From NCBI GenBank assembly GCA_965222605.1, contig OZ244960.1, positions 5,984,001 through 6,048,000 of the forward strand: a DNA stretch of 64,000 nt, in the 5' to 3' direction. This DNA comes from Candidatus Latescibacterota bacterium. Its GTDB lineage: Bacteria > Latescibacterota > UBA2968. A program made the translations under genes and the position numbers. Below, one piece after another: positions 11,024-18,109 of this stretch (the stretch's first letter is position 1; every line of letters starts with the position of its first letter). The notes beneath the pieces are model-generated. The model was not told where the DNA came from and searched no databases. It saw only the letters and a program-made list of their open reading frames with translations.

Positions 11024-12739
11024 CTAATCCCGCGTCCTCCGTATAGACATGGTTTCCCCTTCTTTGATCACCAGTATTTTGTTGGAAGATGTCTCTTCAA
11101 TTCGATCTACTCTTCCCGATGGCCATCGGACCTCTACAAGGTCTATTCGTTCTCGCTTTCCCAATCCAAAGTGCAACCGCAGGTCGTTAGCCGACTGGTA
11201 GCTGGCTGCGCTGTGTACCTCCTTTACCTGCCGCAGATCGCCGGATATCACGGTTACCCGCGTCCCGATTCCGTCCCGATTGGAAAATTTTGAGTTTTTC
11301 TTTAGTTCCGGAACACTTCCTTCTCCAACCAGCCTCACTATCAGCCAGTTGTTCCGGTTGCCTCCTTCATTCCGCAGCAGATCTGGCCGATCGGCGACAT
11401 TGACGACCAGCAGATCGACATCTCCGTCGTTGTCGATATCCCCCGCAGCCGTTCCCCGGCTCGATTTGAGAATGCTCAAACCAGGGCCGAAGCGTACCGA
11501 AGCATCCAGGAATTTCCCGTTACCCGTATTCTCGAAGAGCTTATTGCGCTGTTTGTAGGGAGACACGTCGGAGATAAGCTCGATGTTGTCCAGGACATGC
11601 CCGTTCGCGGCAAAGGCATCGACATCTCCATCGTTGTCCGCGTCTAAGAAGACCAGTCCGAATGTCAGGTCATTCAGTGTTGAGGCTAGGCCCGCTGTCT
11701 TCGTCGCATCCGTAAATGTTTCATCTCCGTTGTTCAGGTAGAGGGTATTTGTCTCCGTTGATAGGTGCCCGATCAGGATATCCGAATAGTCGTTCCCATC
11801 TACGTCCGCGATATCCACTCCCATTCCCGCTTCGGCGTGGCCCATCTCGTTGAATGACACGCCAGACAGCAGGGCGATTTCCTCAAATGTTCCGTCGCCG
11901 AGATTGGCAAAGAGGTAGTTCTCCATCGAATCGTTGGCCACATAGATATCCAGGTCTCCGTCGTTGTCGTAGTCGGTGCCCACCACTCCCAGTCCTCTCG
12001 CTCCCGGTCGGTAGATACCGGACTCGCGGGTTACATCTGTAAAGGTTCCATCTCCTTCGTTCCGGTAGAGCACGTCTGGAACTCCCGGGTAGATATCCGG
12101 GTGGCAATAGCCCAGCGTGGTTGTCCCGGGTATTCTGCAGTCCCTATCGCTTTTTAGAGTACAATCGATATAGTTGACCAGATAGAGGTCGAGGTCTCCG
12201 TCCCGGTCATAGTCGAGGAACATCGCGGTACTACCCCAGCGCGCATCCCCCACTCCGGTCCGGGTGGTCACATCCACAAAGGTTCCGTTTCCTTCATTGC
12301 GGTAAAGCACATTGGGGCCGAAGTTGGTCACGTAAAGATCCAGGTCCCCGTCGTTATTGTAATCTCCCACCGCACATCCCATACCGTAGCCCGGATCGCC
12401 CGTTGCTGACACTGCCGTCACATCCGTAAACCGCCACTCTCCGTCGTTTCTGTAAAGGCGGTTGGTCGGTATCACAGTCGTCTGATAGCCCGGTAGCGGT
12501 GCGCCATTGATCAGGTAGATGTCCAGATCCCCGTCGCCGTCGTAATCGAATAGCCCACAGCCAGGACCCATTGTCTCTACTTCGTACTTCCTGCCACTAG
12601 CTCCGTTGACGTGGATGAAGTCAATGCCCGCCTGGACAGATACCTCCACAAATTGCACCTCCTGGCACCAAACATCGAATACCCAGAAGAATAGAACGAT
12701 TCCAGTACAGAGTTTCATCCATACTCCTTGCGCTAACAA
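11024..12739 (-). CDS. CRTAC1/ASPIC-UnbV family FG-GAP repeat protein
   Basis: Repeated DYDxDGDLDxY motifs; C-terminal SYQSANDLRLHFGLG...VEVRWPSG; signal peptide; probable start at the ATG near 12718. Confidence 0.9.
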   Translation of the reverse strand: MLAQGVWMKLCTGIVLFFWVFDVWCQEVQFVEVSVQAGIDFIHVNGASGRKYEVETMGPGCGLFDYDGDGDLDIYLINGAPLPGYQTTVIPTNRLYRNDGEWRFTDVTAVSATGDPGYGMGCAVGDYNNDGDLDLYVTNFGPNVLYRNEGNGTFVDVTTRTGVGDARWGSTAMFLDYDRDGDLDLYLVNYIDCTLKSDRDCRIPGTTTLGYCHPDIYPGVPDVLYRNEGDGTFTDVTRESGIYRPGARGLGVVGTDYDNDGDLDIYVANDSMENYLFANLGDGTFEEIALLSGVSFNEMGHAEAGMGVDIADVDGNDYSDILIGHLSTETNTLYLNNGDETFTDATKTAGLASTLNDLTFGLVFLDADNDGDVDAFAANGHVLDNIELISDVSPYKQRNKLFENTGNGKFLDASVRFGPGLSILKSSRGTAAGDIDNDGDVDLLVVNVADRPDLLRNEGGNRNNWLIVRLVGEGSVPELKKNSKFSNRDGIGTRVTVISGDLRQVKEVHSAASYQSANDLRLHFGLGKRERIDLVEVRWPSGRVDRIEETSSNKILVIKEGETMSIRRTRD

Positions 12740-13124
12740 GTGGCGAGGTTGGTCAAGTATCGCTATTTCAACATGACCTGGGGATCGCTCTCATACGCAG
12801 AATCTATTTGAACCAGACGCTCTAAAGTCAGAGCGAATAATGCAAAATCTTAACTACAAATAATTATTGCAAATCAGGCGGTTCATTATCGGCATTATTA
12901 ATTTCTTTTATCCCGGAAGCGCTGAGAAACTTTTCTGCCAGCGGTCCAAAATGATCTTCTCTTGATTTTGTGTGTCATGTTTGCGAATTTATGGATAGGA
13001 AATCCCTTTGTCAATCCCTGTTTCCATTCCGCCCAGGCGCCTCGGGTTAGAGGGATTGAACGATTGTTGACTTATTCTTTTGAACCGCGGTCACTTTTCA
13101 CCTGAAGAAACATGGAGGTGTATT

Positions 13125-14405
13125 ATGATGCTCAAAGAGATAACAAATTTTGCTCCGGCATTGACGGACGAGACATTTGCAGAGTTGTTCGAAGCCTGTC
13201 GGCCCCAAAGAGAACGCTGGACAGATATCCCCTGGATCGGGGAACTCTGGGAGGGACGACAGAAGGCGGCGCGCGAGGAGAAGCCATTGTTCATCTGGGC
13301 GATGAACGGCCACCCTCTGGGTTGTACGTGAAATAATGGGGTTACGGGCCGTGCGCTCGTTTTTTCAGATCCGCGCGTGATCGCGCTTGTGAACGAACGG
13401 TTTATCCCGGTGGCTGTGAACAATTCCCGGTTGCAGCGACAAGCCGATGAAGAGGGCCGATTTTTGCGCTTGATCGCCTGGCAGGGGCGGTACGGGTATT
13501 CTTTTGAGGAAGCTCAGGCCCGGTTGGAGGCTATCGATCACGGGCTGAATCATCAAGGTCTATATGTAACAACGACAGAGGGAGAGGTGTTGGGCAGCCG
13601 CAACAGACTGTTTCCGGGTGGCAAGGTCCATGTTCAGAGTGTGGGTAGCGATCCAGACCGGTTTTTGTGGATGTTGAGACGGGCGCTGGTAAACTGGGAG
13701 AACCGCAAGACTCAGCGCGAGGCATTGGAAGTCGAAGATCTGGCGTATCGGGATCCCACATTTAGCTGGACGGCGTATCCGGAAGATGGGCTGGTTTTGC
13801 ATCTGGGTGTTAGGGACCTGCCCCGGCTGGTAGATACGCGGCCTCCGGGAATGAAGCGAGAGGCGCACAATCAGGATTACGTCTGGTTCCGACGGGAAGA
13901 GATGCTGTCTATGGTTCCACCGGATACGGCTGTGGGCGATGTTATTCCCATGCCCGAGGGGTTGGTCAGGCGGCTGGTGCGTTATCATCTGGCGGATTAT
14001 GTTCGGGGGGAAACGTCTTCGTGGTCGTCCGAGGCGATTCGGGATGCGTCTATGACGTTGACAGTGACTGATAAGACGCCAGAATGGGTGGATTTAAGGC
14101 TTTCCGGATCCGCGCGGTTGTTCGCGGAGGGGAGTTGGTACGAGGGTGCGTGTCAAAATCGGGGGCTGGATGCATCGCTTCTGGGATATTTGCGTTTTGA
14201 TCGGTCTGAGGAACGGTTCGTGCGATTCGATGTGGTGGCGGTGGGATCGCGGTGGGGCGGCACGGATTACAATGTACGGCAGGACGATTTGGAGCCTGCG
14301 CCGATCGGGATTGCGATGACGATTGCCGGGTCTGAGGCGAAGGATCGCACAGCGCCGCATGCGTGCCAGAGTCGAGGTGGTCTGAAATGGTATTTTAATG
14401 CGTGA
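13125..14405 (+). CDS. Candidate selenoprotein, thioredoxin-like N-terminal domain with C-T-U motif (UGA at 13329-13331), 426 aa if read through
   Basis: RBS GGAGGT at 13114-13119; ORFs 13080..13331 and 13377..14405 are in one frame, separated only by one TGA and 15 sense codons: GHPLGCT*NNGVTGRALVFSDPRVIALVNERFIPVAVN. Confidence 0.75.
13344..13360 (+). promoter_or_regulatory. Putative bacterial SECIS hairpin
   Basis: ACGGGC-CGTGC-GCTCGT stem-loop starting 12 nt after the UGA; apical loop 18 nt from the UGA with G then U near its 5' side. Confidence 0.55.
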
Positions 14406-14420
14406 TTTGATAGCCGGGAT

Positions 14421-15374
14421 GTGTTTTGTCGCATTTTGGGAGGGATGATGATACGGTGCGAACGCAGAGCAGAACTCGAGATCGAAACACCGCACCTTTG
14501 CGCGACGGTGCGGACAGAGGGGTACGTGAGCGGGATCAAAAGCAGATCGTTTGTAGATAAACGGACGGGCGCGACCGATCTGGGTTCGGGCCTGCACATT
14601 ATGGACTTTCTGCTCGTGCCGGGGTGGGGAGATGCAGAACAAAATCGGATCTACGACGGGAATCTGCCCAAGCGCGTGGTGGAAGGTCCCCAGATCTGTA
14701 CGCGGGCACGGCGGCTGGACTATGAGGTTATCCGGGGCGAAGCGTTTCTGGCCGTGCGGCAGTGGTTTACGTTCACGAGCGTGGTTGAAGGTTTCCAGGC
14801 CGGGTCGCGGTGGGAGCAGACGTTGCTATTTCTGCCAGATACGCGGTACGTGCTTTCGTGCGAACGGATCACCTGCGTCAATAGTGCGGACTGTCTGTTT
14901 TACCGGATCGACATGCCCGGCCACCTGCACCACAAGGGTGGAGACACTTTTACGCGGATTTACCTGAGCTACCACGGGTACATCGAGTCTTCAGAATTCC
15001 TGACGGATTTCCCCCCGGACGAAGGGTTCCTCTATCAGCGCAAAGATCACGATATTCCCGATCGGATTATCCGGGCGTATGAACAACGGAAAGAGGGCGG
15101 CACGGCCGTGTGGCTGGCGGGGATGACGCTGGACCCAGCGGCGGTGTACGAGGCGTGGTGCCACCAGCGGGGTTACGTCTGTTTCATCCAGGAACTGCAC
15201 GGTCGGAAGGTGACGGCAGGGGACGCGATCGGGGCCGCCTATGTGGTGGGATATTTCGATTCGGTGGCTGAGATGAATGCGGTCTATGACCAGTATCGAG
15301 GGGTGCGCTCGATTGCGGTAGATGAAAAGGGATACACCCTGCTGAATGAGGTAGAGAAAGCCGATGGGATTTAG
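14421..15374 (+). CDS. Hypothetical protein (galactose-mutarotase-like beta-sandwich fold possible)
   Basis: Long ORF co-oriented with the upstream gene; likely start at the ATG near 14445; no confident family motif. Confidence 0.6.
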   Translation: MFCRILGGMMIRCERRAELEIETPHLCATVRTEGYVSGIKSRSFVDKRTGATDLGSGLHIMDFLLVPGWGDAEQNRIYDGNLPKRVVEGPQICTRARRLDYEVIRGEAFLAVRQWFTFTSVVEGFQAGSRWEQTLLFLPDTRYVLSCERITCVNSADCLFYRIDMPGHLHHKGGDTFTRIYLSYHGYIESSEFLTDFPPDEGFLYQRKDHDIPDRIIRAYEQRKEGGTAVWLAGMTLDPAAVYEAWCHQRGYVCFIQELHGRKVTAGDAIGAAYVVGYFDSVAEMNAVYDQYRGVRSIAVDEKGYTLLNEVEKADGI

Positions 15375-16546: not shown

Positions 16547-18109
16547 ATGACCAGAACCACACATAAATCGCCTATTTCTATTGACCGGAGGGATTTTATT
16601 CACCTGGCCGGGCTCGGCGCAATGGGTGCGCTTGTTCTGGGGCTGGATGTTCCAGTTGTCGCACAAAAACAACCCAATTTTATTTTTATGCTTTCTGACG
16701 ATCAGGGTTGGGATGGCCTTTCGGTACAGATGGACGATGCGATTTCCGGATCAAAGAGCGACTTTTATCAAACGCCCAATTTGGAGAAATTTGCACAACA
16801 GGGCATGCGTTTTTCGGCTGCTTATTCGCCTTCGCCTGTCTGTTCGCCAACGCGATGTAGTCTTCAAACGGGCAAGAGTCCGGCGCAGAACCGCTGGACA
16901 AAGGCAGCCCCAATTAAGACCGCCGCAGATGGCTATAAACTCATCCCGCCGATGCATGGCAAAAATCTCTCCAATAGTGAGACGACAATTGCTAAAATGT
17001 TGAAACAGGCCGGTTATGCCACAGCACATTATGGCAAATGGCATCTCGGTGGCGGTGGTCCTGGAAACCACGGGTATGACGTACACGATGGAAATACAGG
17101 GAATAGGGATGCGGCTCCTTTTATCGATCCCAATCCGGTAGATATCTTCGGTATGTCCAGGCGTGCCAATGCGTTTATGGAGGAGAATACAGAAGCTGGC
17201 AAGCCGTTTTTTATTCAGTTGTCTTATTATGCTCTGCATTATCCTCAGAATGCACTGGCAAGTACGAGGCAGGCATACGAAAATCGACCGAAAGGGCGCG
17301 TCCATCGGGATGTCAACCGCGCGGCTATTACTGAAGACCTGGATACAGGTGTGGGTATGATCATGGATCAAGTTGAGAAACTCGGCATAGGTGGTCACAC
17401 GTATCTGATTTATATGTCCGATAATGGTGCTGGCGGCAACCGGGGTGTATTGCGCGGTGGGAAGGGGTCTTTGTGGGAAGGTGGTATTCGTGTGCCGTTG
17501 ATCATCCAGGGACCTGGTATAGAGCCAAATACATTATGTCACGAACGCGTGGTCGGCTTCGATCTGTTTCCCACGCTTTGCGAATTGGGAGGTGTGAGCC
17601 AGTCTCTGCCTGCAGGTATTGAGGGCGGTAGCATCACGTCGTTATTATCTGGTGGCAAGGGCGCGGTCGAGAGACCTCATGAGGAACTCGTTTTCCATTT
17701 CCCACATTATCAAAGTGCAGATGGACCGCATTCAGCTATTGTGCAAGGCGATCTCAAGTTGATCAAGTTTTACGAGACCGATGACGTGCGATTATACGAT
17801 TTGGTCAATGATATCGGAGAACAAAATGACCTGTCCAAAGATATGGGGGAAAAAGCGATGCACCTGCGCGAACGCCTCGAACAGTATCTCGATTCAGTTG
17901 ACGCTCAGATGCCTGTGCCCAATCCGAATTATGGGACAGACAAGTCAAGTGATTTTAATGGTGATGGTCAAATTGATCTCCGGGATTTTCTCGAATTTGC
18001 CAGAGCTTATGGGTCGGAGGAAGCCCGGTTTGATCTGGACAATAGCGGGCGTGTGGATTTTGCCGATTTTTTGAAGTTTGTACAGGATTTTGGAGATGGT
18101 GGGAATTAA
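16547..18109 (+). CDS. Tat-exported sulfatase (S1) with C-terminal dockerin-like/EF-hand repeats
   Basis: DRRDFI Tat motif; PNFIFMLSDDQG; CSPTR formylglycine motif; GKWHLG; tail DFNGDGQIDLRDF...DLDNSGRVDFADF. Confidence 0.9.
   Translation: MTRTTHKSPISIDRRDFIHLAGLGAMGALVLGLDVPVVAQKQPNFIFMLSDDQGWDGLSVQMDDAISGSKSDFYQTPNLEKFAQQGMRFSAAYSPSPVCSPTRCSLQTGKSPAQNRWTKAAPIKTAADGYKLIPPMHGKNLSNSETTIAKMLKQAGYATAHYGKWHLGGGGPGNHGYDVHDGNTGNRDAAPFIDPNPVDIFGMSRRANAFMEENTEAGKPFFIQLSYYALHYPQNALASTRQAYENRPKGRVHRDVNRAAITEDLDTGVGMIMDQVEKLGIGGHTYLIYMSDNGAGGNRGVLRGGKGSLWEGGIRVPLIIQGPGIEPNTLCHERVVGFDLFPTLCELGGVSQSLPAGIEGGSITSLLSGGKGAVERPHEELVFHFPHYQSADGPHSAIVQGDLKLIKFYETDDVRLYDLVNDIGEQNDLSKDMGEKAMHLRERLEQYLDSVDAQMPVPNPNYGTDKSSDFNGDGQIDLRDFLEFARAYGSEEARFDLDNSGRVDFADFLKFVQDFGDGGN

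Follow-up and report, generated by a model that had tools for sequence, protein, structure and literature searches.

Evidence for a thioredoxin-fold selenoprotein gene with a conserved in-frame UGA in a Latescibacterota genome

Prokaryotic selenoproteins were tabulated in a 2026 review as 119 families and subfamilies with Pfam, NCBIfam or CDD identifiers (PMC13188914). Among those listed there, the thioredoxin (Trx) UxxC form, the Trx7/PDZ CxxU form NF041199, the GOS_C UxxC form NF045500 and the "Sec.1" CxU form PF13192 carry UGA at a Trx-like redox site with the selenocysteine insertion sequence (SECIS) directly downstream. An earlier survey of Global Ocean Sampling (GOS) data from 2008 had introduced the families GOS_A to GOS_C, with GOS_C being Trx-like with UxxC (PMC2398784). 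Also Trx-like, with a single selenocysteine (Sec) followed by x-x-(non-Cys), are the VPGUxxT selenoproteins of types 1 and 2 (NF041382 and NF041383; "OS_HP5"), and the fold is shared by the Thioredoxin_7 (PF13899), DsbD-gamma, DsbH and DUF255-type domains. A Trx-fold bacterial selenoprotein with a SECIS in its coding region is a well-known kind, and the recoding described here is ordinary in kind. Here, we describe a gene of 426 codons at positions 13125-14405 on the plus strand of a 64,000-nucleotide stretch of a Candidatus Latescibacterota bacterium genome (assembly GCA_965222605.1, contig OZ244960.1, positions 5,984,001 to 6,048,000; hereafter, the window). We are confident that it is a genuine selenoprotein gene, with the Sec site C67-x-U69-N-N-G72. 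Its parts are as follows.

13114-13118, plus strand: Shine-Dalgarno sequence GGAGG, read in the sequence, 6 nt 5' of the ATG at 13125
13125-14405, plus strand: whole selenoprotein gene; homologs align across residues 1-426, and the aligned start is ATG in most homologs
13209-13721, plus strand: thioredoxin-fold domain, residues ~29-199, the UGA falling after strand beta1 and before helix alpha1 (AlphaFold2 model, VIA-align)
13323-13325, plus strand: TGT codon of Cys67, at -2 relative to Sec, a candidate for the resolving role; almost unchanged across the 25 aligned sequences
13329-13331, plus strand: in-frame UGA, codon 69, predicted to be read as Sec; conserved column, aligned with the first Cys of CxxC
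13344-13360, plus strand: SECIS-like hairpin, stem 13344-13349/13355-13360, loop 13350-13354 CGUGC (RNAalifold, covariation)
13737-14402, plus strand: beta-rich C-terminal domain, residues ~205-426, with the conserved RWGG-T-YN-R-DD-PAP-G motif (domain model)

Compared with the Thioredoxin_7-type domains, the protein has the same fold and Sec69 at the position of their first CxxC Cys, whereas it lacks CxxC itself, has Gly where the second Cys would be, carries an MNGHP insertion and is fused to a beta-rich domain of ~220 residues that is not seen there. Some catalogued Trx-fold selenoproteins share its CxU spacing (Table 1 of the review), but the Pfam and NCBIfam models of these families gave no match at E ≤ 1, and their architecture and motif differ. 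The only NCBIfam match was to NF041383, at 17.7 bits against a 275-bit cutoff and over residues 34-105; five of 25 family members matched this model, with a best E value of 0.0022. The NF041383 profile, with 287 positions, exceeds a bare Trx domain, as does the protein described here, which differs from VPGUxxT proteins in its motif (G-C-[TV]-U-N-N-G), its length of 426 aa and a score far under the cutoff. True NF041383 members were found in none of the 168 genomes of the phylum, where the weak matches lay in another part of the profile.

When TGA is translated as U, the gene comprises 426 codons including Sec69, followed by a TGA stop at 14403-14405. The frame starts MMLKEITN...FIWAMNGHPLGCT, with a second ATG at 13128, and reaches the TGA of codon 69 directly after ...AMNGHPLGCT, with 357 sense codons following. 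Under translation table 11 the stretch yields two open reading frames (ORFs), one of 83 aa ending at 13331 and one of 342 aa from a GTG at 13377, and inspection of the sequence found no purine-rich Shine-Dalgarno sequence 5' of that GTG. The original prediction, made from the letters of this DNA, had pointed to the strong ribosome-binding site ahead of the interrupted frame, to the TGA straight after GHPLGCT with its 357 further codons and to the lack of a clear ribosome-binding site at 13377, and all three were found as described. The stretch from 13125 to 14405 is a single gene rather than two hypothetical genes. Its conserved N-terminus has no visible signal peptide on inspection, and the protein is probably cytoplasmic, as this absence suggests.

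Conservation of the UGA indicates that codon 69 very probably encodes Sec. A search of 168 Latescibacterota genomes with the read-through protein returned 52 matches in 45 genomes, and all 47 matches covering codon 69 contained exactly one in-frame TGA; the remaining five were C-terminal fragments, four without a stop (one corresponding to residues 164-426) and one with a TAA. For 46 of the 47 site-covering places, the window's own included (G051:C206, at a contig edge, was omitted), alignment to the query put TGA in the same column in 46/46, within the motif NG[HN]P[LIVF]G[C/S][TV]-U-NNG[VI]. Moreover, 76 loci were found in named public genomes, with TGA at the site in 75/75 covering loci (L138 stops before it), and the record titles of these genomes included Latescibacterota, Poribacteria, Pirellulaceae, Phycisphaerae/Phycisphaerales, Isosphaeraceae, "Gemmatimonadota/Gemmatimonadetes" and one "Bacillota" metagenome-assembled genome (MAG). 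The two sets overlap, many of the genomes being the same, and combined they comprise 80 distinct sequences of 171 nt surrounding the site. In a 25-sequence alignment with identities down to 41%, the protein was conserved on both sides of the TGA, and the residues W32, W37, W42, R45, P54, F56, W58, M60-G62, P64, G66, U69, N70-G72 and R76 were invariant near the site. His63 varied only to Asn or Asp in the listed loci, and no ortholog with Cys was noted in relatives whose identity exceeds roughly 28%. The proposed check, whether homologs have TGA or Cys at this codon with conserved sequence on either flank, was therefore favorable in each of these sets, all with TGA.

Just 3' of the UGA, an RNA hairpin is conserved together with the codon. 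The 17-nt element ACGGGC-CGUGC-GCUCGU begins 12 nt past the UGA, and RNAalifold analysis of 36 sequences (35 distinct) returned exactly these six pairs, none broken in any sequence, with an alignment consensus of -9.69 and two-sided changes at three pairs (A-U/G-C/G-U, C-G/U-A and G-U/G-C/C-G). When a seventh pair, flanking the stem, was counted as well, 92.7% of the cells were paired, compared with 81.2 ± 1.4 in column shuffles (0/500 reached the observed value) and 20.8 to 61.6% in registers slid by one to three columns, while the covariation score was 0.508 versus 0.283 ± 0.023 in shuffles. Across all loci, 59 distinct 40-mers with 16 stem variants were obtained, the four inner pairs being standard in 59/59 and all six being kept in 50, with the loops CGUGC (31), CGUGA (20), CGUGU (6) and CGGGC (2). 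Some compensatory stem changes are not silent in the protein: ACG..CGT to GTG..CAC turns T..V into V..T, and GGC..CTC to CGC..CGC turns G..L into R..R, within UNNGV[T/V][G/R]R[A/E][L/R][V/T]. Selection on RNA is therefore a simpler explanation than selection on protein, and this pattern points to selection acting on the hairpin RNA. According to the review, the bacterial SECIS (bSECIS) model has a loop of 3 to 9 nt, a stem of 4 to 16 bp, a G among the first two loop nucleotides, commonly with G or U after it, a UGA-to-loop distance of 16 to 37 nt and a minimum free energy (MFE) of ≤-7.5 kcal/mol (PMC13188914). The geometry of the hairpin fits the model as given there, with a 5-nt loop, a 6-bp stem, G-U at loop positions 2 and 3 and 18 nt from UGA to loop.

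The genome, a single contig of 6.34 Mb, encodes the machinery for Sec. It contains selA (576 bits) adjoining selB (387.7 bits), both over curated cutoffs, and selD (365 bits, likewise over its cutoff), and selA, selB, selD and tRNA-Sec, which the original prediction had named as a check, are thus all present. The selD gene is itself of the Sec type, with one TGA of its own and the motif SCGG-U-ASK; it lies at L013 ~1501-2424, outside the window, and has a hairpin AUCCAG-CGGUG-CUGGAU 13 nt 3' of its UGA that is comparable to that of the gene described here. A tRNA-SeC(tca) of 98 nt is located ~100 nt downstream of selD, and no further tRNA with the anticodon tca was reported in the genome. Within the phylum, selA was over the cutoff in 131/168 genomes, and it was present in 41 of the 42 genomes with a TGA-bearing full-length homolog, the exception (G044) being an 80%-complete MAG.

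Structural modeling placed the UGA within a thioredoxin fold. The AlphaFold2 model built from the 25-sequence alignment had a predicted local distance difference test (pLDDT) score of 84.7 and a predicted template modeling (pTM) score of 0.84, and VIA-align matched its residues 29-195 to 3f9u_B, the C-terminal domain of a putative exported cytochrome c biogenesis-related protein (Z 11.6, root mean square deviation 3.2, 125 aligned residues), followed by 2lst, a thioredoxin (Z 10.3), 3ph9, AGR3 (Z 9.6), 3ira (Z 9.2) and 2ju5, DsbH (Z 8.9). Foldseek against the PDB gave no match for the full model at E ≤ 0.001, and a profile search of PDB sequences gave nothing meaningful, the best hit (E 0.45) being a stretch of acyl-CoA carboxylase. 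A comparison profile was made from Thioredoxin_7 domains of DsbD-like and DUF255-like proteins in the same genome and its relatives; hhalign aligned the selenoprotein to it with a probability of 69.5% and an E value of 4.3e-5, placing Sec69 on the first Cys of C-T-N-C and Gly72 on the second, with a five-residue insertion, MNGHP, in the beta1-alpha1 loop. A Pfam scan of the read-through protein returned no family at E ≤ 1, and the gathering threshold of PF13899 was not reached; in 15 distant homologs, no Pfam family was found over the thioredoxin-fold region. The proposal of a thioredoxin-like protein with UGA at the usual CxxC redox site thus held for the fold and for the position of Sec at the first CxxC Cys, but the motif is C-x-U-x-x-G and contains no CxxC-type pair.

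The C-terminal domain had been described from the sequence as large and of unknown kind, which agrees with what was found: about 220 residues, a confident model and no clear structural match. Modeled alone from 49 sequences, it had a pLDDT of 91.6, with long antiparallel strands and a few helices. Many polar residues are invariant in the 25-sequence alignment, including Y218, P219, H248, N249, W254, E259, D291 and W300 and, further along, R346, D369, R376-W377-G378, T380, R385 and D388. Foldseek against the PDB found no match to this domain at E ≤ 0.001, and a search of the ESM Atlas returned unnamed clusters only, commonest in Planctomycetota. Outer-membrane-type and other antiparallel barrels matched it in VIA-align with Z ≤ 6.8; homology to these barrels was rejected, and the likeness was taken as a common arrangement.

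To place the gene in its wider family, 1.84 billion cluster representatives were searched with a profile, which matched 2956 proteins at E ≤ 0.001, of which 375 reached E ≤ 1e-30. Among the best 150 matches, 137 start no earlier than profile position 70, the Sec being position 66, and they are therefore gene calls starting just past the UGA; the other 13 are uninterrupted full-length proteins. By eye, the residue at the Sec site in these 13 non-Sec homologs is C in four, A, S and D in two each and R, G and N in one each, and Cys67 is retained in 8/13. The four with Cys (P0129, P0162, P0192 and P0169, read by eye on the G-x-P-x-G motif) are Cys homologs of the kind by which a bacterial selenoprotein is recognized. 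The idea that sense homologs would have Cys at this site was accordingly correct for 4/13, whereas 9/13 have neither Sec nor Cys. In four of the 13 (P0127, P0148, P0169 and P0173), the two-domain module forms the C-terminus of Ser/Thr kinases with Pkinase matches, one of them with Kelch repeats, while other full-length non-Sec homologs have N-terminal hydrophobic leaders (by eye). This arrangement suggests that the kinase-linked, Sec-less module has been reused as an extracytoplasmic sensor domain. The Sec-less and partly non-redox relatives would probably reside outside the cytoplasm, with the Sec form being the compact cytoplasmic one.

Considering these data, the following mechanism is proposed. 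SelB and tRNA-Sec would decode the UGA of codon 69 as Sec, directed by the hairpin at 13344-13360. In the protein, Sec69 would replace the nucleophilic first Cys of CxxC and Gly the second; the Sec69 selenolate could then attack a substrate, oxidized or electrophilic, that the C-terminal domain would hold, and Cys67 would resolve the adduct as a selenenylsulfide, a role that an external thiol may take in members without Cys67. We regard this particular chemistry, from the attack by Sec69 to the resolution by Cys67 or an external thiol, as evenly poised between right and wrong. More generally, we infer that the protein functions as a selenol-based oxidoreductase, and with this we infer actual Sec insertion, redox chemistry and a role for the C-terminal domain. 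In the claim of a 426-aa Sec redox protein, the 426-residue frame with Sec is supported by the data above, while the redox part is proposed.

Several observations weigh against the decoding of codon 69 as Sec or against its redox role. The scan of named genomes was seeded with a Sec-type pattern of the motif region, P[LM]F[IL]WAMN, and is biased toward Sec forms, and the co-occurrence with selA, consistent with Sec dependence, discriminates weakly, selA being common in the phylum. Folding energies of single sequences are also weak. The 17-nt hairpin alone has -6.5 kcal/mol, short of the -7.5 that the review gives for the bSECIS model, and is no better than shuffles (z -1.29); the 81-nt stretch 13320-13400 gives no signal (z +0.87); and the MFE of the 40 nt from the UGA (-11.8) belongs to a different, longer fold without alignment support. 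It is thus covariation that carries the argument for the hairpin. The two outer pairs are mismatched in 9/59 distinct sequences, being standard in 56 and 53, and the hairpin plus TTTTTT (window 13344-13369, plus strand) in this genus also scores as terminator-like. As for the chemistry, the model has a pLDDT below 50 at residues 70-74, beside the Sec site; the usual cis-Pro before strand beta3 is not evident, the residues there being HQG; Cys67 is replaced by S, A or G in 5/121 listed loci (L049, L103, L133, L135 and L137), and the Cys67-Sec69 couple is thus not universal; and the wider family, as judged from its sequences, is not uniformly redox-active, with 9/13 distant homologs lacking Sec or Cys.

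The alternative that survives best takes the selenoprotein as real and assigns Sec69 a task other than thiol-disulfide redox chemistry: it might be a metal or metalloid ligand together with His63 and Cys67 (H-x3-C-x-U), or a one-residue peroxidatic or sulfur/selenium-transfer center as in UxxT/UxxG selenoproteins. The second CxxC position is Gly rather than Cys, Ser or Thr, which this account would explain, and all the residues found at position 63 (His, Asn and Asp) are possible ligands. The five loci without Cys67 also fit it, as do the distant homologs that keep the fold, and often Cys67, without Sec or Cys. Moreover, UxxG and CxU motifs occur in non-oxidoreductase selenoproteins listed in the review, namely, arsenite methyltransferase, rhodanese forms and UshA-like proteins (PMC13188914). 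However, Sec lies exactly at the nucleophile position of Trx-fold oxidoreductases, Cys67 is kept in all but those five loci, and no metal-handling genes were found to recur beside the gene in the 11 loci scanned. We consider a Sec69 outside thiol-disulfide redox chemistry rather unlikely, although it is the main alternative.

Much less probable is the reading as two genes, in which the TGA would be a true stop after a 68-residue peptide, the hairpin and T-run would act as an attenuator or intrinsic terminator, and translation of the 342-aa ORF would be independent. Table 11 yields exactly these two ORFs, a hairpin followed by TTTTTT fits a terminator-like consensus, and in public gene calls only the part downstream of the TGA is annotated. 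Against this, the sequence from the TGA to 13377 shows conservation at the protein level and has a coding pattern: base entropy at codon positions 1/2/3 was 0.68/0.47/1.24 over the 24 codons before the TGA (80 distinct sequences) and 0.62/0.54/0.98 over the 15 codons from there to the equivalent of 13377, and the same signature (position 3 above 1 above 2) continued beyond the latter. The equivalent of 13377 is a start codon in only 32/80 distinct sequences, with ATT, ATC, GTC, GTT, GTA or GCA in the other 48, and 14/80 have no in-frame ATG, GTG or TTG within 32 codons past the TGA. The GTG at 13377 lacks a Shine-Dalgarno sequence. The stem and loop are kept in distant homologs, whereas the T-run, which encodes a conserved Phe, is not. 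In the structure model the TGA divides one thioredoxin fold between strand beta1 (55-60) and helix alpha1, and full-length homologs without interruption exist. The two halves, whose separate occurrence had been raised as evidence that could overturn the prediction, are thus not conserved as separate genes, and the two-gene reading is already disfavored. As a separate observation, termination or pausing inside the gene at the hairpin and T-run could in principle compete with Sec decoding.

It is similarly improbable that the UGA is read through as something other than Sec, that is, as Trp or Gly by a reassigned code or by near-cognate suppression. One gene call from the Joint Genome Institute (JGI), P0048, does have W at the Sec codon (GCVWNNG), its contig apparently having been translated with TGA as Trp. 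However, the stop of the selenoprotein gene is itself TGA, selA, selB and the surrounding open frames contain no internal TGA, the sole tRNA with the anticodon tca is tRNA-SeC, and the SECIS-like hairpin is conserved at a distance appropriate for SelB; in addition, the recurring sense alternative is Cys (4/13 homologs) rather than Trp or Gly. A pseudogene created by recent nonsense mutation of a Cys codon, for which TGA is one base away from TGT and TGC, is already refuted for practical purposes because the TGA is conserved, identical in 80 distinct sequences of several phyla with purifying selection on both flanks.

The genuine selenoprotein gene that these comparisons favor appears to belong to an uncatalogued family, as far as the literature and model searches reach. 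It was not found among the 119 families of the review, whose tabulated Pfam and NCBIfam models gave no match at E ≤ 1 except the subthreshold NF041383; this comparison covered the families identified by Pfam or NCBIfam. NF045500, the present model of GOS_C, does not match the protein. Full-text literature searches on selenoproteins in Latescibacteria, in Poribacteria and, combined with SECIS, in Planctomycetota gave nothing relevant (for Latescibacteria, at the level of titles and abstracts), the Poribacteria result concerning hydrogenases. The suggestion of an undescribed family is consistent with the absence from Pfam, NCBIfam and, in its tabulated form, the 119-family catalog. We tentatively propose, with slightly less than even confidence, that this is an uncatalogued, nearly Sec-obligate family, widespread in Latescibacterota, Poribacteria and Planctomycetota, in which a C-x-U-x-x-G Trx site and an unmatched beta-rich domain make up a new kind of two-domain enzyme, and whose Sec-less relatives were recruited as extracytoplasmic sensors of Ser/Thr kinases.

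Such a family would bear directly on public annotation. The public calls of close relatives are pieces of 300 to 350 aa that cover ~80% of the query, and the few that have a name are called "hypothetical protein." Pipelines thus handle the gene as had been foreseen, with table 11 splitting it and the records holding the post-TGA piece. A family model reading UGA as Sec would correct many records now cut at the UGA. The selenoproteomes of Latescibacterota, Poribacteria and Planctomycetota, all of them mostly uncultured, would each gain a family. A site that strictly retains Sec, has Gly where CxxC has its second Cys and carries Cys at -2 offers a compact test case for the use of Sec over Cys, and the unmatched C-terminal domain, reused on Ser/Thr kinases, marks a ligand or substrate worth seeking.

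Additional copies of the gene were also found. A paralog in the same genome (L046 501-1823, plus strand), ~8.5 kb upstream of the window start, is 68% identical and has the same in-frame TGA and the identical hairpin ACGGGC-CGTGC-GCTCGT, while the relative G042 has three copies. Immediately downstream of the gene in the window, a 317-aa gene (14421-15374, plus strand) starts 16 nt past the selenoprotein stop; it belongs to no Pfam family, and in the ESM Atlas it falls into unnamed clusters that are commonest in Planctomycetota. Two further neighbors are the following.

11024-12739, minus strand: FG-GAP/ASPIC-UnbV repeat protein, the upstream neighbor
16547-18109, plus strand: sulfatase with a C-terminal EF-hand/dockerin-like tail

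Synteny of the 317-aa gene and the FG-GAP/ASPIC gene with the selenoprotein gene was observed within the genus only. At 11 more distant loci (including L032, L035, L036, L038, L041 and L044), the neighbors were PALP (pyridoxal phosphate dependent) at four, a DRL_cat/SAF oxidoreductase at three and DegT at two, plus SDR, Ldh_2 and GFO_IDH_MocA; these loci are mutually related, and the counts are not independent. The recurring PALP and DRL_cat neighbors may hint at small-molecule or amino-acid metabolism. Assignment to a pathway from the neighbors was rejected, the loci being variable and related and the pattern too weak.

In one study, two metatranscriptomic libraries yielded contigs that match portions of the gene as it occurs in a relative of ~92% identity, and one contig of 665 nt spans 13051-13715, across the TGA. 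These contigs hint that the selenoprotein gene is transcribed; contigs of RNA libraries can contain DNA, and they are silent on decoding.

Finally, a crude scan of the whole genome for a TGA, a spacer, a 6-bp stem and a GU loop within an open frame gave 18 matches, selD being missed by design. Apart from the two copies of the selenoprotein family and one possible MoeB-like site, the matches looked like noise and were discarded. The latter site, around base 3673966 on the minus strand of the same genome and outside the window, reads ...APS-U-DEAGVLGVLPGTIG and is a candidate that may resemble the active-site region of MoeB/ThiF. MoeB is one of the selenoprotein families listed in the review (PMC13188914).

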